Source: a virus | Lineage: Duplodnaviria; Caudoviricetes | Strand: one strand, 5' to 3' | DNA length: 47,108 nt | Virus record (IMG/VR): IMGVR_UViG_3300010376_000053 | Coordinates: 1-47,108 of that record | Made by a program: the position numbers and the translations under genes | The notes under the pieces: generated by a model | The model's input: only the letters and a program-made list of their open reading frames with translations | What the model was told of the DNA's origin: nothing | The model's database searches: none | Shown here: positions 5,558-47,035 of the stretch, piece after piece | Layout of the letters: every line of letters begins with the position of its first letter | Position numbering within the stretch: position 1 is the first letter of the stretch

Positions 5558-5755
5558 AATTTAATCTCCGCCGTAGCCGGCCTGGCCAGCCGGAAATCCA
5601 TCGTGCATGGTTAGTAAGGGAGCGGGCTGTTACCCCGCGTTGATACGAACCCCATGTGGGCTGATCAGATGGACGCGGAAGCAAGGCGAGGCTTCCATTC
5701 CTAATGCTTCAAATTTTTGAACTGGATGCGTGGTGGACCTCATGCAAGAGGAGCA

Positions 5756-6187
5756 ATGCACAATGACTCGCGGCAACTGTCACCACTTCTCGATCGCTTT
5801 TACCACCTCACCCGGCGTTACGCCCACCCACCTGGTCGCAATGCGAGCGCCGACGCGCGCCGTCACTTCGACCAAGCTCAGATCGAACTGTTCCACCTTG
5901 CGCAGGCAATCTGCGCGCTCCTAAACCCTGAAGTCCAGCTCCGCCTCGATCTCCTTCGCGAGGAGATAATGGCACAGCTGCGCCTCGAGCTTAGGACATG
6001 CGCCACCGGCGCATTTGTGGTCCGACGCAAACACCCTCGCCCCGTCCTGTGGTGGGAGTATCAGATCACCCCTGAGCTTACCCATGACCCGACAATAGTC
6101 GGCAACGCGGTCCTGCGCCCCTACGTAAGCCGTCTTAAGACAGCCCTGCGCGACCAAGCTGCCGTAATCAAGGCCCGTCTGCCATAA
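5756..6187 (+). CDS. hypothetical protein
   Basis: GAGGAG SD before ATG 5756. Confidence 0.65.
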   Translation: MHNDSRQLSPLLDRFYHLTRRYAHPPGRNASADARRHFDQAQIELFHLAQAICALLNPEVQLRLDLLREEIMAQLRLELRTCATGAFVVRRKHPRPVLWWEYQITPELTHDPTIVGNAVLRPYVSRLKTALRDQAAVIKARLP

Positions 6188-6200
6188 CGCCCGACCCAGT

Positions 6201-6216
6201 TGGCACCGAAATTGCA
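6201..6216 (+). promoter_or_regulatory. sigma54 (-24/-12) promoter heading the replication module
   Basis: TGGCAC-CGAAA-TTGCA, exact GG-N10-GC spacing, intergenic, 55 nt before ATG 6271. Confidence 0.75.
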
Positions 6217-6270: not shown

Positions 6271-6564
6271 ATGGCAGAAATCACAGTTCCCGATAAGCAC
6301 AATGCACAGTTCAAGACCGTTACCCTCAAGGTCTCGACCAAGGCTGGTGGCGACGAGAAGTCCGAACAGGACTTCCAGGCTGACCTCCCCGCATCGCTTG
6401 GCGATGCTGTCGCTCTTCTTGGCGAAAAGGCAGTGTTCCGGCGCTTCATCAACGCGCACGTCGTGTACCTCCAGGGCGTCGAGCGCGCCAAGCTCATGAA
6501 GGCCGCCGACACCGAGCCCAAGGAGCGCAAGCGCGCCCAGTACCTCGAGTCCCTCGGGCTCTAG
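6271..6564 (+). CDS. hypothetical protein
   Basis: AAAGGGG SD; clean 97-aa ORF. Confidence 0.8.
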   Translation: MAEITVPDKHNAQFKTVTLKVSTKAGGDEKSEQDFQADLPASLGDAVALLGEKAVFRRFINAHVVYLQGVERAKLMKAADTEPKERKRAQYLESLGL

Positions 6565-6735: not shown

Positions 6736-6909
6736 ATGACCAAAACGATCGATGAGATGACCGAGGACGAGCTAATCGCTGCGATCACGCAGCTACAGCA
6801 AACACGCGTCCCAAGCGAAAAGCCCAAGACACCCCACCGATTAGATGATCGCCCGAAGAAAGACCCGGCCAAGCGGACCTGGCGCGACGAGCTCTTTGGT
6901 GACGATTGA
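6736..6909 (+). CDS. small hypothetical protein
   Basis: MTKTIDEMTEDELIAAI...; start 6736 preferred over 6652. Confidence 0.6.
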   Translation: MTKTIDEMTEDELIAAITQLQQTRVPSEKPKTPHRLDDRPKKDPAKRTWRDELFGDD

Positions 6910-7187: not shown

Positions 7188-8114
7188 ATGGACGAACATG
7201 GGCCTGAAGTCTTCTGGCTCGACAACTCCAAAATCGAAACCTTCATGCTTTGCCCGCAGAAGTACGCTTTCCGCTTCGAGGAACACCTAGTCCCCGTTGA
7301 GCGCAAGCGCGACTCTGCCCTGATGTTCGGCGGGGCCATCCACAAGGCCCTCGAGACCATCTACAAAGGCACCGGATTCGAACGAGTCCAGTGCCCCCGC
7401 TGCCAAGGGGGCTACTGCGTCTATTGCAAGGGCGGTACCATGCTAAAGATGGCAGCGATCTTTCTCGCCAACTACCAAGACGATCCCGAAGATCCAAAGG
7501 AGATTCGCACGGCAGATCGCGGTCTCGACCTACTCGCCCAATACCTGGGCAAGTGGCGTCGCGAGCCCTTCAAGACAATCGCCGTCGAGATCCCCTTCGA
7601 GCTACCCTTCTCGCTTGCGGGCCTAACCTTCAACTACGTTGGCCGCATCGATCTCTTCGTGGATTGGGAGGGCATCCCATTGGTGGTGGACCACAAGACC
7701 ACCACACGCTTCGGCATGCTCTTCGACTCGAGCTTCAAACTCAACGGCCAGTTCACAGGATACATGCGTGGTGCTGAGCAGAAGTTCAATCGACCTGTCT
7801 TCAATGCCCTCGCCAACGCCATGCGCGTGACCACCAAAATCGACGACAACTCGTTCGCTCGCATCTACACCCAACGCACCCCCGAAGACTTCGAGGCGTG
7901 GGAGCGCCAGGTCAAGCATGTTGCAACAGAAATACTTCAGATGCGAGCGACCGGCTTCTTCCCCAAGTCCGCGCCCTTCGCCTGCGGAGCCTACAACCGC
8001 ATGTGCGAATACTACCCGCTGTGCATCAGCGCAGCGCAGACCCAGAAGACCCTAAAGCAATCCTCGTACGAGCGCATCCCATGGGAGCCCCGAAAGGACA
8101 GCGACGATGAATGA
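7188..8114 (+). CDS. PD-(D/E)XK (RecB/Cas4-like) exonuclease
   Basis: CPQKY, FGGAIH, E..F, GRIDL, VVDHKT, Q..GY, C-terminal C..C.Y..LC; CPRC..CVYC insertion. Confidence 0.88.
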   Translation: MDEHGPEVFWLDNSKIETFMLCPQKYAFRFEEHLVPVERKRDSALMFGGAIHKALETIYKGTGFERVQCPRCQGGYCVYCKGGTMLKMAAIFLANYQDDPEDPKEIRTADRGLDLLAQYLGKWRREPFKTIAVEIPFELPFSLAGLTFNYVGRIDLFVDWEGIPLVVDHKTTTRFGMLFDSSFKLNGQFTGYMRGAEQKFNRPVFNALANAMRVTTKIDDNSFARIYTQRTPEDFEAWERQVKHVATEILQMRATGFFPKSAPFACGAYNRMCEYYPLCISAAQTQKTLKQSSYERIPWEPRKDSDDE

Positions 8115-9419: not shown

Positions 9420-10850
9420 ATGCCAGATGAATTAATACCCATCAAGGATATCGTGGTCGGGAACCGAATGCGTAAGTTCTTCGGTGACATCGAGGCGCTC
9501 GCCAACAGCATCGCCCGCTTCGGCCTGATGACGCCCATCGTCCTGGACGAAAATAATAACCTGATCGCTGGCCATCGCCGGATCAAAGCGATGCAGCATC
9601 TAGGTAAGCCCGACATAGCCTTCAGGCGCATGTCCCAGCTGGATGACATCACCAGGCAGGAGTTGGAACTTGAGGAGAACATTCGTCGGAAGGACCTCGA
9701 ATGGCCGGAGGAAGTCATCGGTCTCTATAAGCTCTATACCGCCAAGCAAGCTCGCTATGGGGACAAGGGTAGTACTCTGGCAAGCAACGGCGGTTACGGT
9801 ATCGAAGATGCCGCTCGTGAGCTTGACCGATCAGGCGGCTCGATATCTATGGATCTCGCTTTGGCGCGTGGTTTGTACGAGTATCCTGAACTGACAGAGG
9901 AGAAGACCAAAAGTGCCGCCTTCAAAAGATACCGACGGCTCAAGGAAACGGCCCTACGCTCGGAACTTGCGAAACGAAAGCAGACCGCGACAACTGAGCC
10001 AGAGCCCGAAGAAGACGAAGAGGCTTTTGACGATGAGGAACCTGCAACTGGAGGCGGAATACAACGCCAGCCAATCCGTAAGGCACTATGGAAGGGTCTT
10101 GGAGTCTTCTACCACGCAGACGCCCGCGACGTTCTACGTCAACTCCCAGCGGCATCGGTGGACCTGATCGTCACAGATCCTCCCTATGGGATAGGGATGT
10201 ACCGGGAGGGCGCCCCAGTCAGCTCGTCGAAGTTCGCCTCGAGCCAGGGCACAATGTACGGCGACAATCCCAAAGAGATCATGGACATGCTCGACGAAGT
10301 CTTCATGCACGCGGCCAAGGTCCTTAAGCCCGACGGACATGCCTACGTGTTCTTCCACATGACTCGCTACGAGCCTGTCTACATCATGCTCCGCCGCCAT
10401 TTCGGGACGTGTGAGGCAACGCCAATCATATGGCTCAAGCAAACATCGGGCATCGGGGATCCAAACCGCAACTGGATCTACACATACGAGCCGTGTTTTT
10501 GGGTCAACAGAGGACGCGGGCTGGTCAAGCCACAGCCCTACAACGTGCTCAAGTATGACACGGTCTCGAAGAAGATACACAGCGTTGAGAAGCCCGTCGC
10601 ACTCATGCGCCACATCATCGAAGCGTCAGCCGTCAAGGGTGAGCTCGTCATGGACCCATTCGCCGGAAGTGGCAGCACATTGGTTGCTGCGGCGCAGCTT
10701 GGCTGTAGGTTTGCGGGAGTCGAGAAACATGCTGACTTTTGGCGCTCAGCTGTGGATCGCGTATCGCGTGATCTGGCTTCTCAGGCCGAAGCTGACGCGG
10801 TACCAGCTGATAGCGAGCCTGATAGCGGTGCTGATGCACCAGTCGACTAG
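9420..10850 (+). CDS. ParB/Srx-domain + HTH + N6-adenine/N4-cytosine DNA methyltransferase (beta class) fusion
   Basis: LANSIARFGLMTPIV..LIAGHRR (ParB); TDPPY, H..EKP, DPFAGSG (MTase). Confidence 0.9.
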   Translation: MPDELIPIKDIVVGNRMRKFFGDIEALANSIARFGLMTPIVLDENNNLIAGHRRIKAMQHLGKPDIAFRRMSQLDDITRQELELEENIRRKDLEWPEEVIGLYKLYTAKQARYGDKGSTLASNGGYGIEDAARELDRSGGSISMDLALARGLYEYPELTEEKTKSAAFKRYRRLKETALRSELAKRKQTATTEPEPEEDEEAFDDEEPATGGGIQRQPIRKALWKGLGVFYHADARDVLRQLPAASVDLIVTDPPYGIGMYREGAPVSSSKFASSQGTMYGDNPKEIMDMLDEVFMHAAKVLKPDGHAYVFFHMTRYEPVYIMLRRHFGTCEATPIIWLKQTSGIGDPNRNWIYTYEPCFWVNRGRGLVKPQPYNVLKYDTVSKKIHSVEKPVALMRHIIEASAVKGELVMDPFAGSGSTLVAAAQLGCRFAGVEKHADFWRSAVDRVSRDLASQAEADAVPADSEPDSGADAPVD

Positions 10851-10882
10851 GCTCCAGCTCTGTGCGATCGGCAAGTTCGTCT

Positions 10883-13144
10883 ATGAGCCTAAACGGAACC
10901 ATCGTCCCGCCAAGCGGGTCGCCCTACGGCACGATAGCTATAGTGGCGGCCCGCCCAGGGGAAAATGAATGCCTCACGCACATGCCCCTCACGGGTCCCT
11001 CGGGCAATCTATTGTGGCGCCTTCTCGGAATCCCACGGACGGAGGTATACGTCACCAATGTTCGGAAGGACTTCAGCGAACGTAATTCCGTTCCAACCCC
11101 AGCGGAGATCGACGAGGCGTTGCCGGGGCTGCGGGACGAACTTGCCAAAACGTCTGCCACTCTATTCGTGGCTCTCGGCGCACAAGCACTCTACGCTCTT
11201 ACTGGGAAGTCGTCGATTGAGCAGTGGAGGGGTTCTGTTATACCTTGCAGTCTACTGCCGGGCCGAAAGGTCCTGGCAACCTATCACACGGCTCATGCAC
11301 TCCGCGAGTACCCGACGACTTATATCATAGAACACGATCTACGACGAGCAAGACATGAGTCGCTTTATTCGGATATCCGTAAACGTCCGCGCCAGTTTAT
11401 CATCGACGCCCCCCTTAAGCAAACTGTTGAGTATCTCGACAACCTTGGCGACCCTCTTTCGGTGGACATCGAGACTATCAGCTTTGAGACAATTGACTGT
11501 GTCGGTATCAGTGATAATCCCGAGCGAGCAATATGTATCCCATTTATCGGAGGTCGTCTCACAGCTTCAGAGCTCGCGTATGTTTGGCGTCGGCTCTACA
11601 ATCTCTTTCTGTCCCGTCGAGTCATTGGACAGAACATCCAGTTTGATCTCACCCGGCTCGAGCGATATGGGTTCCGATTCCCACACATCTTCTTCGACAC
11701 CATGCTTGCGCATCATCTCCTCTACCCAGAGTTTGACCACGACCTCGGGTTCATCGTAAGCATCTACACGAAGGAGCCAGCGTACAAACATGAGATCTCA
11801 ACGAACCGCTGGGAGTACAACTGCAAGGACGCGGCGTTCACGTACGAAGCGTACGAAGGACTCTCCAAGGAACTCAAGCAAGCGGGGCAATGGGACTACT
11901 TCTACGAGCACACCATGTCCCTCATTAGACCTGTCATGGCGATGCAATCCGAAGGTTTCGTCATTGACAGACCTGCCCTACATGCTACGAAGAGACGCTT
12001 GGATCTTGAGCGAGAATACTTGCAGCTTATGCTCGAGAAAGAGGTTGGTTATCCTATCAACGTACGGTCGGGGCCCGATCTGCGTAGATTGCTGTATGAA
12101 GATCTACGGCTCCCTGTTAAAAAGCGAACTAAGAAGGCACAAGCCCCAGCCACTGATGAAGAGCTTATTCGCTCCCTTGCTTTTGACTTTCCTCAACACG
12201 CTGGCGTGCTACGCGCAGTGCTCGAAGTGCGCGAACGTCGCACAATGCTGTCTGGTTTCCTCAACTTGGAAGCGGACTCTGACGGTCGCTATAAAGCCAA
12301 CTACTTGATCCATGGGACCAAGAGCGGTCGCTTAAGTAGCCGTGGGCGTGGTGAAGGCCCCCAGCTACAGAACATCCCGCTGATGGCTAGGAAGATGTTT
12401 GTGGCGAGCCCTGGCCATACCTTAATCCAGGGGGATCTCAAACGTGCCGAAGCTATGTTTGTCGCGTTTGATTGTGGTTCGGCGAAGCTCCAGAATCTCT
12501 ACACTAACCCAAAGATCAATCCGTACTGTGAGTTCGCCACCGAAGTCATGCACCGACCCATCACCAAAGCCGATGAGCTCATCTACAAAACCTTCAAACA
12601 AGTGACGCATGCCAGCAATTACGGTATGGCTTGGAAGAAGCTCATCATTGTACTTCGGCTCGCTGGTATCAACATCGAAGACCTCGAGATCCGTGGTCTT
12701 TTCGGTGGAAAGAAGAAAGCCGAGTTCCTCATCGAGAGTTACCATGCTTCGTACCCGGAAATACGACACACTTGGCACCGACGGATCAGAAGTATCGTAC
12801 GACCTACCAGGTGTATTCATGATGCGTTTGGTCGGCGACGTTTATTTCTCGATCGTATGGACGAAGATTTGTTTCGCAAAGCGTACGCCCAGCGACCCCA
12901 ATCTAGTATCGTAACGGTCGCCAACATTGGGGTCCGCCGCCTCGTTGCTCAGGGCTACCGAGTCGTCGCTCAAGTGCACGATTCAATCGTGGTCGAAGTC
13001 CCCGAAGAGGACGAGCACGCCAGTCTGGTAGCCCTCAACGAGGCGATGACAACCCCAGTAGAATCATGGGGTGGCACGTTCACAATCCCAGTGGAGCTTA
13101 AGAGTGGCCACAGCTGGGGCGACTTGCACGAGGTCGAGATATGA
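10883..13144 (+). CDS. polA: family A DNA polymerase with N-terminal uracil-DNA-glycosylase-like domain and 3'-5' exonuclease
   Basis: UDG-like PG..E....P.TGPSG.LL..YVTN; exo DIET / NIQFD / YNCKD; polymerase TKSGRLSS, QNIP, DLKRAE, K...HASNYG, VHDS. Confidence 0.92.
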   Translation: MSLNGTIVPPSGSPYGTIAIVAARPGENECLTHMPLTGPSGNLLWRLLGIPRTEVYVTNVRKDFSERNSVPTPAEIDEALPGLRDELAKTSATLFVALGAQALYALTGKSSIEQWRGSVIPCSLLPGRKVLATYHTAHALREYPTTYIIEHDLRRARHESLYSDIRKRPRQFIIDAPLKQTVEYLDNLGDPLSVDIETISFETIDCVGISDNPERAICIPFIGGRLTASELAYVWRRLYNLFLSRRVIGQNIQFDLTRLERYGFRFPHIFFDTMLAHHLLYPEFDHDLGFIVSIYTKEPAYKHEISTNRWEYNCKDAAFTYEAYEGLSKELKQAGQWDYFYEHTMSLIRPVMAMQSEGFVIDRPALHATKRRLDLEREYLQLMLEKEVGYPINVRSGPDLRRLLYEDLRLPVKKRTKKAQAPATDEELIRSLAFDFPQHAGVLRAVLEVRERRTMLSGFLNLEADSDGRYKANYLIHGTKSGRLSSRGRGEGPQLQNIPLMARKMFVASPGHTLIQGDLKRAEAMFVAFDCGSAKLQNLYTNPKINPYCEFATEVMHRPITKADELIYKTFKQVTHASNYGMAWKKLIIVLRLAGINIEDLEIRGLFGGKKKAEFLIESYHASYPEIRHTWHRRIRSIVRPTRCIHDAFGRRRLFLDRMDEDLFRKAYAQRPQSSIVTVANIGVRRLVAQGYRVVAQVHDSIVVEVPEEDEHASLVALNEAMTTPVESWGGTFTIPVELKSGHSWGDLHEVEI

Positions 13145-13353
13145 GCACAGACCAGCCGGATCGCTCGGGCGCGGACGCCCTCGCTCCGGAGGGCTTGGTA
13201 GGGGAAGAACCGATGGGGCGAAGAACGAGCCTACCGTGGAACTTTCGCTGCATGGAAGACCACTGGCATACGGTGAGCAATGTCACTGAGCTAGTTCACA
13301 ATGCGCCGCGCTGCCTCCTAGAAAGGATCGCGCTCGAATGGGCAATGCTATGA
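13141..13353 (+). CDS. hypothetical protein
   Basis: ATGA overlaps on both sides. Confidence 0.55.
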   Translation: MSTDQPDRSGADALAPEGLVGEEPMGRRTSLPWNFRCMEDHWHTVSNVTELVHNAPRCLLERIALEWAML

Positions 13354-13562
13354 TTCCGTGGGACGAGATCAACGACGCAATACTAGCGACCCTAACGCCA
13401 AGAGAAGAATACGTGCTTCGTAAGTACTTTGGACTCGGGTGCGACAAGGTACCTACCGTCAAGATAGGAGAGTACTTCCACATAGGTCCAAGCGGGGTGG
13501 ATCATATACGCAAGAAGGCTCTCAAGAAGATCGAAGCCCGGTTTGGGAGGATAAATGGATGA
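13350..13562 (+). CDS. stand-alone sigma70 region-4 HTH protein
   Basis: LATLTPREEYVLRKYFGL...IGEYF.I....V..IRKKALKKI matches RpoD region 4. Confidence 0.8.
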   Translation: MIPWDEINDAILATLTPREEYVLRKYFGLGCDKVPTVKIGEYFHIGPSGVDHIRKKALKKIEARFGRING

Positions 13563-21850: not shown

Positions 21851-23378
21851 CGGTGTACGCTCGCAAGGTTGGTCTCGCTGATCCGTTTTCCTTGGGATAG
21901 AAGAATCGGTACCGTCTAACATTCGAGGTTATGTTCATGTCCACGAAGTCAAAGCCCAGATAAGGCCCAAAAGGCTTGAGCGCTCTTTGATAGGGAAATG
22001 AGTTCCCACGGTCAACGCTCACCTCAAGCTTGAAGGCCGGGCCGTCCGGCGTCGGGTAGTCATCCGAGACCATCACGCGCTGAAGCGTCGCGTTCTGGAG
22101 CGCAGTTTGGTCATAAAACATGTCCGGCGTGTCCACAAACATGTCCATCCCACCATCATCTGGACGCCAGAACCAATCCCCGCAGATACGCTCGTCGATT
22201 AGAAAGTACCCGTTATCGGACGCTGCCAGGAGTTGTGGGTAATTCTTCGGATAACCATGCTCATTGTAGCCCGACGTACCGACTGCTCCGGGCAGAATGT
22301 GCTCCGCCAGCGCGTTCAGGTTGTGGAACGAATCGCGAGTCCACGAGTTGCGGAAGTAGTCGAATATTAGGGCTGTCCACTTTCCACACACTTGATCGGG
22401 TATGACAAGCCAGTACTCCTTGAAGCCCATAAACGCCGCCGCAAACGGCATATTCTGCCAAGTATAGGCAATGGACGGATCGAACATCTTGCGTAGGTAC
22501 GAATGGATGGGGGACCCGATAGGGTTCAAATTCACACCATCCCACGAATACACATTGAAATCGTTCGCCACGAAGATGTGGGCCTGCCCGACACTCACCA
22601 GGGACCAAGGTAACATGCACCCTATCCCGTACACTTTGCCTTCGGGAATGAAAGGGGCGCTAGCATCACCAGTTGCAGAGAAGTCCACGATGGAGCTGTT
22701 CCGATAGACCACTAGCCGATCGTTGAGGAGCTTCCCACCCGTGATGGGCTCAACTGTTCCTTCATACAAGTCAACGAAGCCACCTCGGTAATGACCCGTC
22801 CCGTCGAGCCCAACCGCCCAGTCGGCGTAATTACCCAGGGTGCTCCACTGCACACGATTCGGCATCGGACCCATCGGGTTCGGTGAGTTCGTATCGGCCA
22901 CGATGTTCATCAGGAAGACATGGTTCTTGAAATACTCGATAAACATGCCCGCGGGGCTAGCCACCTGGGTGATGCCGCTGGGCGACAGCGCAGATATCTC
23001 GCTCGCCCGCACAATCAAGAGCTGCTCCTCGCCCGCTGTCCAGCTAAAACGGCTGTCGCGACGCGGATACATCTGCAACGATCGCGGAGCCCCAAACTGG
23101 TGGGTAGCCACATCATACGCAAGAGCAGAGTTGGTGCCATCCAGCCCATAGATCGTCTTGTTGCCAGAAGCGTCAGTCTGCTCCGCAAACCCAAGTATCG
23201 GGCTGCCCAGAGTCTGAAGCGAAATCGATCGGCCAGGAGCCCTCATGATCTTACCGAAGCGGAAGCGGACATTCTGGCACCACGGCGAATACTCGGGTCC
23301 GATCGAATCTGCCGGAGCCGAAATCCAGAGACCCTTCTGTGGAGTAAGCTGTCGTGTGAACTTTTCCTGTGCCATCAA
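21762..23378 (-). CDS. tail nozzle / tail tubular protein B-like (beta-propeller)
   Basis: CQNVRF, RVQWS..G...W, 538 aa, follows the adaptor gene. Confidence 0.7.
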   Translation of the reverse strand: MMAQEKFTRQLTPQKGLWISAPADSIGPEYSPWCQNVRFRFGKIMRAPGRSISLQTLGSPILGFAEQTDASGNKTIYGLDGTNSALAYDVATHQFGAPRSLQMYPRRDSRFSWTAGEEQLLIVRASEISALSPSGITQVASPAGMFIEYFKNHVFLMNIVADTNSPNPMGPMPNRVQWSTLGNYADWAVGLDGTGHYRGGFVDLYEGTVEPITGGKLLNDRLVVYRNSSIVDFSATGDASAPFIPEGKVYGIGCMLPWSLVSVGQAHIFVANDFNVYSWDGVNLNPIGSPIHSYLRKMFDPSIAYTWQNMPFAAAFMGFKEYWLVIPDQVCGKWTALIFDYFRNSWTRDSFHNLNALAEHILPGAVGTSGYNEHGYPKNYPQLLAASDNGYFLIDERICGDWFWRPDDGGMDMFVDTPDMFYDQTALQNATLQRVMVSDDYPTPDGPAFKLEVSVDRGNSFPYQRALKPFGPYLGFDFVDMNITSNVRRYRFFYPKENGSARPTLRAYTDVYVPSGEFFPTRKAVNPRDPFVPPTHID

Positions 23379-26369: not shown

Positions 26370-27536
26370 CTACTCCCTCCCGCTCAGTCCCACTTCTAGA
26401 AATTTTACTCGATCCGCAAGTTCCTTAATCGCGTTTATCACCGCCACGGACATAGGGTTCATATCGAAGGTGAGGTAATCTTCACCATCAATATTTGTGG
26501 ATCCGATGCATTCCGGGAGAACAGATTTCACGGCCTCCGCATCGAAACCATGACAAAGTAGACTCGGGTTCGATTTTAGACGGTATGTCTTTGGCTCGAT
26601 CCGAGCGATCTCAGCGAGGCCAGCGGTATATGGGGCAATGTCAGTCTTCAGTCGTGGGTCCGAAGGATTGACCCACGCGGTCCCACTGGCCTTCGTGGCA
26701 GTGGGGCCAGAAATCGTGAGGTTGCCGCTGAAGTCAAGGGTGCCGATCACACCAGTCCAGTTGCTAAACTGCACGACCCCACTCACGTGAGGGAAGACAA
26801 CAAATGGGGAGAACCCGGCTGGATTACTACCAGTCCACCCAAGGGGCTTGCAGCTAACACTCCAACTCGTAGCAGCCGGAGCAACGTTAAAATCGAGCGA
26901 CCAAGTAGACCTGGTAGAATCATACACTGTTGAGTATTGATTGTTCATAGTGAGCTGTGCATCTTCCCCGAAATGTATCAGTTCCATTGGAATTGACATC
27001 GAGGAGTGCCCAAGACCAAAGTGAGTGCCACCGCTCGCTTGCATTTCCAGCCAAAATGTTGATCTCCAGCTATCAGGCAACCCCGAAGCACCGGGAGGCG
27101 CATAGGAGCCATTCAGTGCCCACAGCCGATTCGGGTTTTTGGCACTGGCAGCACGCCTATTCCCTGTGTTCAAATCCAGTGTGAGACACGGTTCTGACGG
27201 ATCATCGTAGATAACATAAGTCGCCGCGGCACCCCAGTGCATATTATAGGTGAGTTCGGCGCCCCCATCATAATTGTAAAGGCGAGTTTTACCCAGATAG
27301 CCCGCATCAGGATTACCGATCTCAATCCCATAAAGCGCGGGATTCGTGGGACCAGGCACCGATGGAGGACTCACCAAGGAGGCCGTTTCACTCGTAAGGT
27401 TAACGGTCCACAATCGCTCAGCAGCCCAAAGAGGATCAAGGTCGGCGTCCATCTCAGTCCTAAGGATCGGAACATTGCTCGGACTTAGATCCGAGTAGCG
27501 AGTGACACCACCACGCTTGGCAGGACGCGTCGCCAT
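26370..27536 (-). CDS. tail fibre/spike with C-terminal peptidase S74 chaperone (paralog)
   Basis: WVNPSDPRLKTDI...GFDAE.V..VLPE...INAIKEL. Confidence 0.85.
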   Translation of the reverse strand: MATRPAKRGGVTRYSDLSPSNVPILRTEMDADLDPLWAAERLWTVNLTSETASLVSPPSVPGPTNPALYGIEIGNPDAGYLGKTRLYNYDGGAELTYNMHWGAAATYVIYDDPSEPCLTLDLNTGNRRAASAKNPNRLWALNGSYAPPGASGLPDSWRSTFWLEMQASGGTHFGLGHSSMSIPMELIHFGEDAQLTMNNQYSTVYDSTRSTWSLDFNVAPAATSWSVSCKPLGWTGSNPAGFSPFVVFPHVSGVVQFSNWTGVIGTLDFSGNLTISGPTATKASGTAWVNPSDPRLKTDIAPYTAGLAEIARIEPKTYRLKSNPSLLCHGFDAEAVKSVLPECIGSTNIDGEDYLTFDMNPMSVAVINAIKELADRVKFLEVGLSGRE

Positions 27537-30908: not shown

Positions 30909-32425
30909 CAGAAATTCATTGTAAACGGGATCGCATTTGACACGATCACATAGTCCGACCAGTCCATGCGCCACAAACCCACGCTGAGCATGACGGTATG
31001 GGTTGACCCTGGCTCGGGATAAACGGTAATGTTTCCTCGAGTCGGAATTCCGAAGCCACGGGGATCCAGGCGCATAGTAGTTTGGGTCGCCTCCCAGACA
31101 GAATCAAACCATCCGTTCCAGGCAATCCCATTGATGAGGACTTGCTGAGAGTTCGTTCCCCAGTCGTTGGGCGGAGGCGGGGACACCGGAAATGTCCCAG
31201 TAAGTGTCAAGGCGGTACTGAGGCCACTGTCTCCTACCGCCCATGGATTGGGGCTAATACTGGTGAGCATCAGTTTATTTGGATTTGTAACCGCGACGAG
31301 AGACACTTGCACGTTCTCGCCATTGATCCACGGAGGCTGCGGAGGACCCATGACCGTCCCAATGTGCGGCCCGGTCCATGTGCCACCATTAGCCCACATG
31401 AGGGGAACGGGCGCATTTATGAGATAGTCAAAGGTGAACGGTCCCGTGAGTGTATATGTTGATACAGCGCCACTGGTTTGTCCGGTGAGAGTTATCTTGG
31501 TGCCAGCATCCAAGGTTAGAAACTCGGCGGTGTGATCCTTTCCAGCGTTATCAACGACGGAGATGGCCCAGCGATCTACGGTCCCCATATTCCTCAACTC
31601 GCCAGGTGCCATGTCGCTCAGAGATCCGTTGGCGGCCATAAGGGTATAGTGGGCCGACTCCAGGCCACCATTGGGGCCGGCCCCACCACCGCTACTAATC
31701 GAGCACCAGCCAGGGATTGTATCAGCCTTCAGGGAGCCCCCAGAATAGTACCACGCCATACCATTCCAGTTTGCATCCACAAACCCGATAGCTGCCGTTG
31801 GGCCCGAAGAATTGATCACAACACAGTTAGGGGGCTTCAGGCTAGCAGCTCGCTGCAACGGCGTGTCAACTAGAATCGTGCGGCCCTTTAGATAACGGCC
31901 CTGAGCACCACTCGGCGCGAAGTTAGCCTGCGCGTTGCCTGCATCCTGCGCGAGCCACTGGGACTCGCCCCCGAAACCCAAAGTCATCATGGTCCCATTG
32001 TCGAGCACATACAGATATAATATACTGCTATAACCGGACTCAGTAATCATGAGACCCAGGGCGGGCGCATAACCTGGCGTAGGGGTAATCATCACATCGC
32101 TGACCACGCGCGGGGTTCCATACACAAGAAAGCCATCAGGAGGCACACGCGGTGGATTAAAAGGCACAGGAGTTGCCGTAGCTTGAAAGATGGCAGCACC
32201 ACCCGTTGGATTTGTGGTCACCTCCTTCACGCCGCCAAACCGCAGCTGCATCGGTGAGGTGCCAGTGACGTACAGGTATGCCTCATTACCCCGCGAGGTC
32301 TCGAAGACCAGTGATCCCTTTGTCCCAAGCTTAGACAAAATGGTCAGAATGCTAGGAAATTTGTCCGATCCCAGAACAGAGCAACATCTGGGATAGACGT
32401 CTGTAGTTGGAGCTGGAACTGGCAT
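30908..32425 (-). CDS. virion structural protein (head fibre/decoration, C-terminal IPT/Ig-like domain)
   Basis: Directly after MCP; repeated YLYV....M.L.FGG motif; LTSISPN...LTLTGT. Confidence 0.55.
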   Translation of the reverse strand: MPVPAPTTDVYPRCCSVLGSDKFPSILTILSKLGTKGSLVFETSRGNEAYLYVTGTSPMQLRFGGVKEVTTNPTGGAAIFQATATPVPFNPPRVPPDGFLVYGTPRVVSDVMITPTPGYAPALGLMITESGYSSILYLYVLDNGTMMTLGFGGESQWLAQDAGNAQANFAPSGAQGRYLKGRTILVDTPLQRAASLKPPNCVVINSSGPTAAIGFVDANWNGMAWYYSGGSLKADTIPGWCSISSGGGAGPNGGLESAHYTLMAANGSLSDMAPGELRNMGTVDRWAISVVDNAGKDHTAEFLTLDAGTKITLTGQTSGAVSTYTLTGPFTFDYLINAPVPLMWANGGTWTGPHIGTVMGPPQPPWINGENVQVSLVAVTNPNKLMLTSISPNPWAVGDSGLSTALTLTGTFPVSPPPPNDWGTNSQQVLINGIAWNGWFDSVWEATQTTMRLDPRGFGIPTRGNITVYPEPGSTHTVMLSVGLWRMDWSDYVIVSNAIPFTMNF

Positions 32426-32473
32426 AAAGTTGGCCCTCCTCTGTGCGCTTCAAATCATTGAAGCGTCACGCGA

Positions 32474-33382
32474 TTAGGCCCCCTGTGAGCCGTAGACGCC
32501 GCGCCACTCGCCAGCACCCACACTGAAACGCTGGAAGCTCTTGAACTTCGCGTCGCCGGTATCGAAGTCATCTCCGTTCTGGAAGCGCTCCGGCTGCCTC
32601 TCGAAGAAGTTCAAGTCGTGATCGCCCTTCCCAGCGAGCAGGAACCACGAGTCTGGATCCACGATGTAGTGGCCCACCATATAATCGAGGCCCTCTTCGC
32701 GAATCGCGTTGATCTCGTTGTTGCTGGTGTACGGCCGGAACTCCGACCCCAGGATCTCTCGAGCAGTCATCTTGAGCTGAGGCCCAACTAGCAAGAGCTT
32801 GGGCTTGATGACCACCGGGATATCCATCTCGTCCGAGAGCACCTCGAAGCTGATAATCGCGGCCTCGAGACTGGTTGGGCTAAGATCCGCGTCGGTGGTA
32901 GCCCGGTTGCTTCCAGTCCCGCCACCTAGCTTCGTGTGGGTTGACGCAATGATTGGCTCATTGTTCCCGAACTTTGGGAAGCCATACTCAATCGTGAACC
33001 CATTGTTCAGCATGTTGAAGAACGCGACCTCCCTGGCGTTGCGGGCTGCCTTGGCAAGCTCGCGCGTGTTCTTCTTCATGACGTTGTATAGGTCGTCTTC
33101 CATCATCTCCAGCGTGACCCGGAAGCCGAGCCCATACGTCAAGTGCGTGTAGCGCTTCTTGCCGCCTTGCCGGAAGTCCTGGTACTGAATCCCACGACCC
33201 TCGGGCTTGACGGGCATGGATCCGAGTCCACCCACCTCGAGGTCTTCCTCGTAGGCGCGCTCGCTCGTCTCTTCGTTGGCGATTCTGCTATACTCGGGTG
33301 GCCGCTCGTCCAATAGCTGGAAGAAGACTTTGCGGAGTCCCGGCGCAAGCAGGAATGAAAATGCACCAGTTACGTTTACCAT
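32474..33382 (-). CDS. major capsid protein
   Basis: LAPGL, S.RAYEE, K.EG, YTH.TY.LGF.VT.E..EDDLY, SNNEIN: Mu gpT-like HK97-fold capsid pattern. Confidence 0.9.
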   Translation of the reverse strand: MVNVTGAFSFLLAPGLRKVFFQLLDERPPEYSRIANEETSERAYEEDLEVGGLGSMPVKPEGRGIQYQDFRQGGKKRYTHLTYGLGFRVTLEMMEDDLYNVMKKNTRELAKAARNAREVAFFNMLNNGFTIEYGFPKFGNNEPIIASTHTKLGGGTGSNRATTDADLSPTSLEAAIISFEVLSDEMDIPVVIKPKLLLVGPQLKMTAREILGSEFRPYTSNNEINAIREEGLDYMVGHYIVDPDSWFLLAGKGDHDLNFFERQPERFQNGDDFDTGDAKFKSFQRFSVGAGEWRGVYGSQGA

Positions 33383-41348: not shown

Positions 41349-41826
41349 TATACCTCCTTGGCGACACGTCGATTGCCTGGTGCTCTCTCAGGACTTGGGC
41401 CACCCGGCCCAACGCGTCCGCATCAATTGTGTGGGTTACCTCGGTCTGAATCTTGGTTGGCGCCCGCTTCCCCGCGCGATCTAGGATGTCTTGGGCGGTC
41501 GTGGCTGCGCCCAACTGGGCACGGATGCTCTCCTTCTGCTCGAACAACCGCTCCATCACTTCCTTCTCGATGACGAAAGCTCGATTAGCTGTGTGCGTGA
41601 TCGCCTCGTCGAGAACTTTGGCACCATTTCTGATATCGTTCGCAAAGGTAGATTCGATGGCAAGCAAATAACGAGCCACACGCGGGCGATTGAGGATTGC
41701 CTTGATTGTCATGTAATCGACATCAATGAAATGCCCAATCGTCTGCTCGGACATGCCTGCGGAGCGCATGAGCGCTATGCGTCGCTCGAGCGGCTCCAGG
41801 TCTCGATAGTCGAGGTGTCGGCTCAT
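41206..41826 (-). CDS. putative terminase small subunit (N-terminal HTH)
   Basis: HTH-like GMSEQTIGHFI; AA..ILDRAG motif; upstream of terL. Confidence 0.6.
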   Translation of the reverse strand: MSRHLDYRDLEPLERRIALMRSAGMSEQTIGHFIDVDYMTIKAILNRPRVARYLLAIESTFANDIRNGAKVLDEAITHTANRAFVIEKEVMERLFEQKESIRAQLGAATTAQDILDRAGKRAPTKIQTEVTHTIDADALGRVAQVLREHQAIDVSPRRYNGEEVDPGSDQETWPAPSRFGGSTGPEDPSEEDSSGGSEGWKDRSAG

Positions 41827-44632: not shown

Positions 44633-44973
44633 CAGGCGGCCTTAGTTGCTTCGGCGAGCGCGGCGTCCACCAGGCCGGGGACCGCGTCAGTGTCCTTGAG
44701 CTTGTTCTTTAGTTCGCCCTTGTCGTCAAGCTCCACGAGCTTAAGGAGGACGGACTGCGCATCGACCGGGGCAGGCTGGGGCCGCAGGGCCGTCATGTAC
44801 TCCGTCGCAGCTCGAGTGATCTGGTTCGGTGTGAGCGCGTCGCCGGTCGCGGTCGCCTTGTTAATGGCTTTCTTCGCGTCATCCTTGTTCGTGGCCTTCG
44901 GGGCGTTTGGGTTGGTGCCTCCCACGTCCATCCGTTCCTGCGGGGGCGTCTCCGCCCCATGCTTCGTCGCCAT
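44632..44973 (-). CDS. first gene of the late operon, hypothetical
   Basis: GAGGAGG SD before ATG 44973 (MATKHGAE...). Confidence 0.75.
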   Translation of the reverse strand: MATKHGAETPPQERMDVGGTNPNAPKATNKDDAKKAINKATATGDALTPNQITRAATEYMTALRPQPAPVDAQSVLLKLVELDDKGELKNKLKDTDAVPGLVDAALAEATKAA

Positions 44974-44998
44974 GTTGGACCTCCTCACCGGCAAGGCA

Positions 44999-45014
44999 TG
45001 CAAGTTCGGTGCCA
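44999..45014 (-). promoter_or_regulatory. sigma54 promoter heading the late operon
   Basis: Minus strand TGGCAC-CGAAC-TTGCA, 26 nt upstream of ATG 44973. Confidence 0.78.
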
Positions 45015-45161
45015 GCTTGAGGACAAGCTTCAAGCATTGAAACGTAACGAGATCTGCTTTCGTGCAGATTACCGTTTTTTGTTGCGCGATTGGAGGGGGG
45101 TGTACCCTGCGGGTCCCCCGGTTGCGACGCCTCGTGGGGGGTATCAAGCTAAGGCTCTCGC

Positions 45162-45457
45162 CATGGCACTTAATATAGCACTTTATATATGCCAGCATAA
45201 AAAAAATGCTCAGGCAAGATACCCCCCCCATTGTTTATAGCACTCCCTATCGATGAACTTATAGCAAACTTATCGTAATAGTTTATAGCACGTTATAAGG
45301 CACGTGTCTAGTACGCGTGACCTATGGCATCACCCTTGCACGATGCCATAACTGTTTGCCATAGTCGCAGCGTATGGCATCGAGTATGGCATCGACCTTA
45401 GGCCTATGGCTTCGAGTATGGCATACCATTAAGGCATCGTGCCAAGCTTGTGCTATA
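45162..45457. repeat. array of about 15 TAT(A/G)GCA-type heptamers, often 12 bp apart
   Basis: Copies at 45162, 45174, 45236, 45260, 45284, 45296, 45323, 45373, 45385, 45405, 45417, 45430; inverted at 45344, 45357, 45451. Confidence 0.8.
45325..45340 (+). promoter_or_regulatory. sigma54-like promoter inside the repeat array
   Basis: TGGCAT-CACCC-TTGCA. Confidence 0.5.
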
Positions 45458-45466
45458 TCACAAGAT

Positions 45467-45506
45467 AAAGAAAATGGGGACCACCTTGCGATGGTCCCCA
45501 TCTTTT
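45467..45506. terminator. bidirectional intrinsic terminator
   Basis: ATGGGGACCA/TGGTCCCCAT 10-bp stem flanked by AAAGAAA and CTTTT. Confidence 0.75.
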
Positions 45507-45517
45507 GCTATGCGCTA

Positions 45518-45838
45518 TTACTTGGTCTCTGTGGTAGCGTCCTCCCTGGTCTCGGCCTCAGCAGGCTCCGTGGACTCGGCCTTGATCTTCTCCACATACT
45601 CTGCCAGGTTCTGCGTGTCGGTCTGGAGCAAGGCGTTCGCTAACTCGATGCCCATAGACACCACCATCTCACCGACCTTCCTAACACCTGCGTCAGCACG
45701 TGGGCTATCAGGGTCGAAGTCCAAGGCCTTCATAAGAGCCTTAAACTGTGCCTGGGTCTCGCCTGACATCCTGATATAGGATGAGCCCTTGATCTGCTCC
45801 TTAGCAGGCCTGCCCTCGTTGAACTTTAGATTTGCCAT
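45518..45838 (-). CDS. monocistronic hypothetical protein in the control region
   Basis: AGAGGA SD; MANLKFNEGRP...; has its own terminator. Confidence 0.7.
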   Translation of the reverse strand: MANLKFNEGRPAKEQIKGSSYIRMSGETQAQFKALMKALDFDPDSPRADAGVRKVGEMVVSMGIELANALLQTDTQNLAEYVEKIKAESTEPAEAETREDATTETK

Positions 45839-45960
45839 ATCATCTTCCTCTTTCTGGATGCTATGCATCCTGTTGTGGTTTGCTCGGGCGGTTCTTGCCC
45901 GGCACTGTTGAACGTACCACATGGAGCGCCATCTGTCAAGGGGCACACGAAAATATTTGT

Positions 45961-45976
45961 TGGCACGGAACCTGCT
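45961..45976 (+). promoter_or_regulatory. sigma54-like promoter
   Basis: TGGCAC-GGAAC-CTGCT, GG-N10-GC. Confidence 0.55.
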
Positions 45977-46053
45977 AGGCAATCGCGTACTTGATCAACG
46001 CCTTACGAGCACCCTGGTTGCGCAATGCTCTGCCGCGCCCTGCTGGCAGCCCT

Positions 46054-46136
46054 GGCCGCTGGTCAGGCCGACAGCGCGGCCGCTGGTCAGTTGCTCGAGG
46101 CAGTTCTGCAGCTAGGCAGATGGTCTGGCCGCTGGT
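46054..46136 (+). repeat. three GGCCGCTGGT direct repeats
   Basis: Copies at 46054, 46078, 46127. Confidence 0.75.
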
Positions 46137-46466
46137 TGGATTCGTTGCGCTTCAATTCTTGAACTCGCAACATAGAACAACCACAACTGCCCATTTGTTA
46201 TTGATAACTGTCTGGCATTCTTATGGGCTCTTCTGTGGGGTGCGGCTCCAGCTCGAGCGCTCTCGTGAAATATACTATCCTATTACTTCAAAAAAATATT
46301 AAAAAGAACACATAGTACTATACACAGAGAGGATTCACGAGAGCAACAATCTTAACCATCATCCACACACAGACAAAGCGTGCATAAGAATGCCGAACAA
46401 ATAGCACCAACAAACAGACATACGCGAATTCGTCCACGATGTCAAGTCTCACGGACCCAAAATGCC

Positions 46467-46482
46467 TGGCACCAAACTTGCA
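46467..46482 (+). promoter_or_regulatory. sigma54 promoter heading the early genes
   Basis: TGGCAC-CAAAC-TTGCA, 50 nt before ATG 46532. Confidence 0.75.
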
Positions 46483-46531
46483 TGTACCATCGGTTATAAC
46501 CAGCGTCGCAGACGCCACACAGGAGACCACA

Positions 46532-47035
46532 ATGGCAGACATAGAACGTTTATTCCCACACGTACTCCGACGCAACTACCGACACCGTGCCAGGTTGACC
46601 AAAGCCCTACAGGACCTCGGCGTAACCGACCACCTATTCCCATTTGACTTCTTTCGTCGGCACTGGCGCGACCAACAAAACTACATAGAGCAGATTCTCG
46701 AACTCAAATTCTGCCCCCGCTGCAAACTGCCAGCCCCATATCTCGATGGCATGCTCTGCGTCCCATGTGCAGAGAACAACATGCGAACCTGGCAATCCAC
46801 CATGGCATATCGCGAACGCGCGGCCCATCGCTCCCTCACCGACCGACCAGTTATCGACACAGACATCATGGAGCGATTCCAGGAAGGCAAGGACGACGTC
46901 AAAGCTCAACGAATGGCTCGAGAGTACGGCATATCCGAGGAAGACGCACGCACGATCCTAAACGATCAGAAACCGAAGCCCGAGCCGAAGACATCCGTCG
47001 CCGATATACTCACGAAAGCCCGCAAACCAGCCTAG
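46532..47035 (+). CDS. early protein with zinc finger
   Basis: AGGAG SD; CPRC...CVPC. Confidence 0.75.
   Translation: MADIERLFPHVLRRNYRHRARLTKALQDLGVTDHLFPFDFFRRHWRDQQNYIEQILELKFCPRCKLPAPYLDGMLCVPCAENNMRTWQSTMAYRERAAHRSLTDRPVIDTDIMERFQEGKDDVKAQRMAREYGISEEDARTILNDQKPKPEPKTSVADILTKARKPA

Follow-up and report, generated by a model that had tools for sequence, protein, structure and literature searches.

Sigma54-type promoter sites before the early, replication and virion units of a soil phage lacking a recognizable activator gene

Each of the three large transcription units of the podophage-type genome described here, namely the early, replication and late (virion) units, is headed by a site of the sigma54 (RpoN) -24/-12 type. 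The reading that we prefer, with a probability of roughly 0.6, is that host sigma54 polymerase, opened by a host enhancer-binding protein (bEBP), drives all three units. Below we set out the evidence for the sites, the absence of a recognizable phage activator and the alternatives that have to be weighed.

Three sigma54-type sites in the phage genome

The window that we analyzed comprises an entire virus record of 47,108 bases, which CheckV estimates to be 99% complete, and the sequencing runs that contain this sequence are soil metagenomes. Podophage-type virion genes occupy the minus strand (14990-44973), and the early and replication genes lie on the plus strand. The pattern TGGCAC-N5-TTGCW has three exact matches in the window (Table 1). 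In 1500 dinucleotide shuffles, it occurred 0.048 times on average and at most twice, and the same two blocks placed at any other spacer length from 2 to 9 give one match in total in the window. All three exact sites are intergenic and point at the first gene of a unit, with a ribosome-binding site and a gene at a promoter-like distance downstream; the gaps to the ATG are 54 nt for the replication unit, 49 nt for the early unit and 25 nt for the late unit. An initial annotation of this DNA had described the three strong sites as non-coding, correctly oriented and close to a start codon, and had proposed a scan against shuffled controls; both the description and the rarity of the motif stand, with exact matches nowhere else in the window. 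Contigs of run X2, a run not flagged as the origin of the record, cover 44654-45096 and 46409-46983 with no differences and thus repeat the late and early sites.

Table 1. Features of the phage genome discussed in the text (window coordinates)
Feature	Position	Strand	Remarks
Sigma54-type -24/-12 site, late (virion) unit	44999..45014	-	predicted start 44988; first ATG 44973
Sigma54-type site, early unit	46467..46482	+	predicted start 46493; first ATG 46532
Sigma54-type site, replication unit	6201..6216	+	predicted start 6227; first ATG 6271
Weaker sigma54-type site	45961..45976	+	back to back with the sigma70-type promoter candidate; counterpart kept only by the closest relatives
One-mismatch site in the TATGGCA/TATAGCA array	45325..45340	+	array at about 45160-45460
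Sigma70-type promoter candidate TTGACA-N17-TACGTT, extended TG	45911..45939	-	faces the small divergent gene
Gene of a 106-aa protein	45518..45838	-	between the late and early sites; likely ribbon-helix-helix DNA-binding protein
Terminator-like hairpin	45471-45504		behind the 106-aa gene
Gene of the conserved 135-aa protein	5717..6187 (core 5780-6187)	+	last early gene; directly before the replication promoter
Dyad GCTTCAA-N3-TTGAAAC	45027..45043		12 nt upstream of the late -24 element
Dyad	46149..46165		about 320 nt upstream of the early site
Dyad (N4)	5706..5723		precedes the 135-aa gene; replication site about 490 nt downstream
Conserved GGGTACCCTGCGGGTCC element	45095..45120		almost unchanged in six relatives; late promoter about 100 nt away

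The same annotation had listed two weaker copies, at 45325 and 45961. Both exist, but they are two of seven one-mismatch sites in the window, and the only ones outside genes. The 45325 copy is likely a by-product of the repeat array in which it sits, and no counterpart was seen when it was looked for in the relatives; counterparts of the 45961 copy were found in G001 and L006 and, inverted, in G002. The other five one-mismatch sites, all on the minus strand and inside genes (581-596, 7425-7440, 23124-23139, 27015-27030 and 41663-41678), had no counterparts in the relatives in the same scan. Counted with a relaxed motif, the window holds nine sites against 0.72 in shuffles.

Two further features lie near the late promoter. 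The array contains a 49-nt imperfect inverted repeat, is longer than in the relatives and resembles end-adjacent arrays. The GGGTACCCTGCGGGTCC element is a candidate genome-end or packaging signal.

Conservation of the sites among relatives

Relatives were collected from viral contigs by searches with the terminase and the first replication gene, and the comparison set consisted of nine near-complete ones (G001-G006, G008, G009 and contig C612) with terminases 50-87% identical. Together with the window they make ten genomes, which are related and not independent, and equivalent sites were found at 29 of the 30 positions. The early site has an equivalent in all nine relatives, degenerate in G002 and C612, and the late site in eight of the nine, that of G008 having been looked for and not found. 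For the replication site, TGG-N9-TGC stands upstream in all 15 loci with the first replication gene, nine of them located by pattern search and six read off the sequences. The conservation in related contigs that had been suggested as a check is therefore present.

TGG and TGC-W occur in all 29 syntenic sites, the invariance of GG and GC being partly by construction because the search patterns demanded them, and 27 different 5-nt spacers are found among these 29 sites. Thus, the C(G/A)AA(C/A) spacer that the initial annotation regarded as common to the strong sites is indeed shared within this genome but not across the relatives, and we can rule it out as a signal. RpoN promoters typically have two conserved blocks separated by a spacer that is free in sequence but fixed in length, and the sites agree with the RpoN consensus at both elements and in spacing.

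Independent support for the sites comes from their fixed spacing and the low background. Pooled over the ten genomes, the relaxed motif is found 33 times at spacer 5, compared with 1, 0 and 2 times at spacers 4, 6 and 7 and with 2, 6 and 8 times at spacers 2, 3 and 8; per genome, 1-9 relaxed sites were observed against 0.5-0.75 in shuffles. Strong sites number 24 in the 230 kb of the 15 clade loci versus 4 in the 969 kb of 73 unrelated viral loci (88 loci in total), and the same layout occurs in three more distant phages among the 15. Overall, the sigma54 reading is strongly supported by where the sites lie and which way they face, by their fixed spacing and by their persistence in relatives with terminases as little as about 50% identical, and on these sequence grounds we consider the three sites very probably to be sigma54 promoters.

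As regards more distant loci, L071, L074, L077 and L078 (terminase 27-29% identical) carry a sigma54-type site pointing away from the terminase gene, L071 having three such sites, and most of the 43 distant loci have no outward-facing site.

The replication region has some features of its own. Its first gene (6271-6564) is 59-92% conserved and has no family match, and G008 and G009 carry extra paralogues of it at the head of the early unit. In six genomes, a small protein (6742-6909) has a near-invariant C-terminal tail, KDPAKRTWR(D/E)(D/E)LFG, which may be a docking peptide. Further downstream (10862-13144), a Family A DNA polymerase is fused to an N-terminal uracil-DNA glycosylase-like domain, and in two relatives an inserted HNH-like reading frame separates the first replication gene from the replication promoter (G002, 32298-32510; G003, 22440-22662).

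Absence of a recognizable phage activator

Sigma54 polymerase requires an AAA+ bEBP, whose GAFTGA loop contacts region I (PMC7175178); activator-free sigma54 transcription is described as rare in vivo in E. coli (PMC4551910). We found no GAFTGA-like motif in the six frames of the window or in the long frames of the ten genomes, and none of the 77 window ORFs matched an RNA polymerase family (PHROGs, Pfam), so that the initial annotation, which had seen neither, was right on both counts. The Sigma54_activat profile (PF00158) matched none of 26 phage records (0/5 and 0/21, 11 of them at least 90% complete), and it matched in all 14 control genomes used as a positive control. The RpoN profile matched none of the ten genomes. 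Among the NTPases, the terminase, a Sak4-like protein and a DUF3987 primase/helicase-like protein are conserved, and their genes lie downstream of the sigma54-type sites. As far as motifs and profiles can tell, the absence of a recognizable sigma54 activator holds across the clade; a divergent one may be present among the 703-aa and 581-aa virion proteins or in the DUF3987 ATPase.

A host-driven scenario and the putative host

Since the phage has no recognizable enhancer-binding ATPase, it is likely that a host activator opens the three sites. We suggest that, upon DNA entry, sigma54 holoenzyme would form a closed complex at each of the three promoters and that a host bEBP would open them, either without an enhancer, as FlgR, CtcC and Rrp2 do, or via a site upstream of an A/T-rich tract; such a stretch lies near 46290-46310, between the 46149 dyad and the early site. 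Opening by a host bEBP would consequently tie the start of infection to a host signal. Because the early unit is itself of the sigma54 type, the first activation would require the host, an injected protein or the assistance of a small protein made from a sigma70-type promoter (see below). Moreover, as the three promoters are of one class, the order among them must come from elsewhere.

Two groups come into question as hosts. One relative was binned in genome G026, titled uncultured Acidobacteriota, in which rpoN is present and 25 full-length bEBP matches exceed 200 bits; that a phage contig falls into a bin is weak evidence of its host. An early zinc-ribbon gene of the phage (3824-4075) has 4095 homologues, and the named members of the six large clusters examined are mostly Candidatus Binatia, at 59-65% identity, whereas 300 other Acidobacteriota genomes gave one weak, stop-interrupted match. 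For these reasons, we somewhat favor Binatia over Acidobacteriota as the possible host. The zinc ribbon itself is a phage copy of a conserved 60-aa bacterial protein (Binatia-like), kept in eight of the ten clade genomes; at the host locus L164 its gene comes after a prkA-yhbH-spoVR cluster. We rejected it as a sigma54-linked host gene, a sigma54 site being found upstream in 0 of 76 host loci. A search for a cultured close relative gave no nucleotide match in the phage collection, and the best terminase match was 40.5%.

A small divergent unit and a phage dyad

Not every unit of the phage is of the sigma54 type, as there is a small gene between the late and early sites with a sigma70-type promoter candidate of its own. 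The initial annotation had the whole lytic program running on sigma54, which is maintained for the three large units but not for this gene. In nine of eleven sequences, a -35 element matching at 5-6 of 6 positions and a 17-nt spacer are found 78-126 nt before the small gene, with a -10 element matching at only 2-4 of 6; the generic sigma70 scan did not list the candidate. The 106-aa product falls into an Atlas MetJ cluster at 0.91 with 142 shared features, a match that we take as a lead, and no ribbon-helix-helix family was matched in Pfam or PHROGs; its profile reaches five of the ten genomes. It is likely a ribbon-helix-helix DNA-binding protein, and we predict it to be an immediate-early regulator.

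A second motif, the dyad GYTTCAR-N3/4-YTGAARC, counted in the form GYTTCAA-N3/4-TTGAARC, occurs seven times in the window against 0.08 in shuffles, a contrast that is inflated because the pattern was derived from the same genomes. Besides the three copies of Table 1, it is found at 2678, 14970, 32447 and 40611, all at gene junctions, and its settings include the converging operon ends and the regions upstream of the terminase gene and downstream of the capsid gene. The relatives hold 6 (G001), 7 (G002), 4 (G005), 7 (G006) and 8 (C612) copies, and 1 (G003) and 2 (G004) at the threshold used. In the seven relatives examined, the dyad of the early site is similarly placed (about 315-490 nt upstream), and in some relatives a copy lies inside the replication leader. 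Copies with N4 predominate in the window, G001 and G002, and copies with N3 in the other genomes; the outer flanks are biased as well (S in 54 of 54 and T in 40 of 54 unselected flanks), so that the element spans about 30 bp in all. In distant members (G008/G009, L259/L291) the dyad has diverged, with lineage-specific variants.

Host DNA contains few such elements: there are 3 in 677 kb of host-lineage DNA and 14 in the 7.4-Mb G026, 4 of the latter being on its phage contig. In IMG/VR, the combination of dyad and promoter gave two matches, both from this clade. An RNA hairpin was rejected, the sense strand having no G-U bias (10 G-U, 10 A-C), and a host enhancer is unlikely, as the ten non-phage matches of G026 have no strong sigma54 site within 250 nt. 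Examined as an upstream activating sequence, one copy does precede the early site by about 320 nt, yet the dyad also stands at non-promoter junctions and is phage-enriched. We read it as a predicted DNA site for a phage protein. Its half-site resembles a parS half-site; a ParB-methylase fusion is encoded at 9420-10850.

The phage likely adds a timing layer of its own, consisting of the sigma70-driven ribbon-helix-helix-like protein, which may bind the dyads, and of the ~30-bp dyads at the late promoter, in or before the replication leader and at junctions. With BosR at the Borrelia rpoS promoter as a model, the small protein and the dyads could set the order among the three promoters.

Alternative readings

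It is tempting to suppose that the sites are sigma54 promoters for which a phage protein supplies or redirects activation, although we regard this as rather unlikely. Here the early unit would be started by the sigma70-made small protein or by a virion protein that is injected. For the replication and late promoters, the task would fall to the 135-aa protein, whose gene immediately precedes the replication promoter and which would either act on sigma54 or recruit a host bEBP and turn it on. This protein is the best candidate for a phage-made co-activator: all ten clade genomes have a member of its family, it stands alone as a family with 111 representatives, its structure is confidently modeled (pLDDT 96), and a same-strand sigma54-type site follows its gene by 8-788 nt in 15 of the 15 viral loci carrying it, while three distant terminase relatives with complete genomes (G016, G017 and G019) lack the family. 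Such co-occurrence, however, follows shared ancestry, and 12 of the 15 loci were already known as close relatives. The protein has no P-loop. Its gene lies downstream of the early sigma54 site and hence cannot start the cascade unless it has a promoter of its own. L071, L074, L077 and L078 have an outward site, and among these distant relatives the one with a searched record (G024, 53% complete) gave no match to the family. We know of no natural sigma54 activator that is independent of ATP.

Attempts to place the 135-aa protein gave little. No Pfam or PHROGs family is shared among the 114 members of its family (at most two members per family), and Foldseek gave no match for either model at E 0.001 (PDB, BFVD). 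VIA reached a best Z of 7.0, over a helical hairpin, and 4.9 with the better model; on such models, the missing fold match does not make the fold new. Searches of PDB sequences with three conserved unknown proteins returned nothing under E 0.08. A DUF2357/McrC identity, an Atlas lead at low recognition, found no support, as PF09823 matches 0 of 114 members (Pfam, E 0.01), and an ELFG/GAF-like spacing is not conserved. The predicted complex with the RpoN of G026, taken as a stand-in host, scored 0.00, which is uninformative either way.

More doubtful still is the version in which a non-AAA+ phage factor, be it the 135-aa, an injected virion or the ribbon-helix-helix protein, controls the whole program on host sigma54 polymerase; it would relieve the sigma54 block directly, or capture a host bEBP at the dyads and switch it on. 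Phage-supplied activation as first described finds a parallel in Htm (Gp204) of an E. coli phage, a host-modulating AAA+ protein without a GAFTGA loop that has been proposed to act on sigma54 polymerase (preprint 10.64898/2026.10.06.757011); there the sigma54 link is a hypothesis, and the accessible part of the preprint describes no phage sigma54 promoter set.

An improbable reading has the sigma54 holoenzyme as a silencer, with stable closed complexes imposing dormancy and productive transcription left to sigma70 or other promoters that overlap the sites. In E. coli, sigma54 has been documented to repress (PMC4551910), the 45961 site is back to back with a sigma70-type promoter, and TTGACA directly precedes the replication site in G003-G005. 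Nevertheless, none of the three units had a sigma70 promoter at its head in the generic scan, sigma70 promoters were rarer overall than in shuffles (3 vs 4.2; 4 vs 6.8), and the way in which all three window sites face a ribosome-binding site and a gene is that of promoters. Least probable of all is that the motif belongs to a phage-specific sigma factor or activator and merely resembles the RpoN consensus: the conserved motif of phage YuA does need extra phage factors (PMC10914365) and a small sigma70-region-4-like protein is encoded at 13338-13562, but the latter has a counterpart in only one relative (G003/L111), both elements and the spacing conform to the consensus, and the motif stayed fixed across genomes in which the dyad drifted, as expected for a signal read by the host.

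Comparison with known systems and significance

Activation by the host, the reading that we prefer, finds parallels in chromosomal systems. PMC7175178 describes bEBPs without a DNA-binding domain, and PMC3037356 describes Rrp2 as needing no specific binding while a non-ATPase DNA-binding cofactor, BosR, acts beside the -24/-12 site. FlgR, CtcC and Borrelia Rrp2/BosR (PMC7175178, PMC3037356) thus offer a model of enhancer-free activation with a non-ATPase protein beside the promoter; for this phage, both the cofactor and the matching host protein are hypothetical. With bacterial RpoN promoters served by AAA+ bEBPs such as NtrC and PspF (PMC7175178), the phage sites have in common the two elements, the fixed spacing, the free spacer and the position before an operon; the difference is that here they head phage early, replication and virion units, with no cognate bEBP gene or enhancer identified. 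Among phages, P015 of Pseudomonas phage YuA is a sigma54-like promoter found by start-site mapping (PMC10914365); it is the one promoter of this type there, the others being mostly of the sigma70-like and phage-motif kinds, whereas in our phage all three main units are concerned. A literature search, with most subscription journals outside its scope, returned no description of a phage in which the early, middle and late units are all preceded by sigma54 promoters.

Placing early genes on sigma54 promoters would mean either that a host signal decides when infection starts or that there is another way to open sigma54 complexes, because sigma54 polymerase cannot start without an ATP-driven activator. 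If the host activator proves true, these soil phages of uncultured bacteria would possess a simple means of sensing the state of the host. If, instead, a phage factor is at work, it would be a new kind of sigma54 activator and would speak to the long-standing question of whether non-AAA+ natural activators exist.
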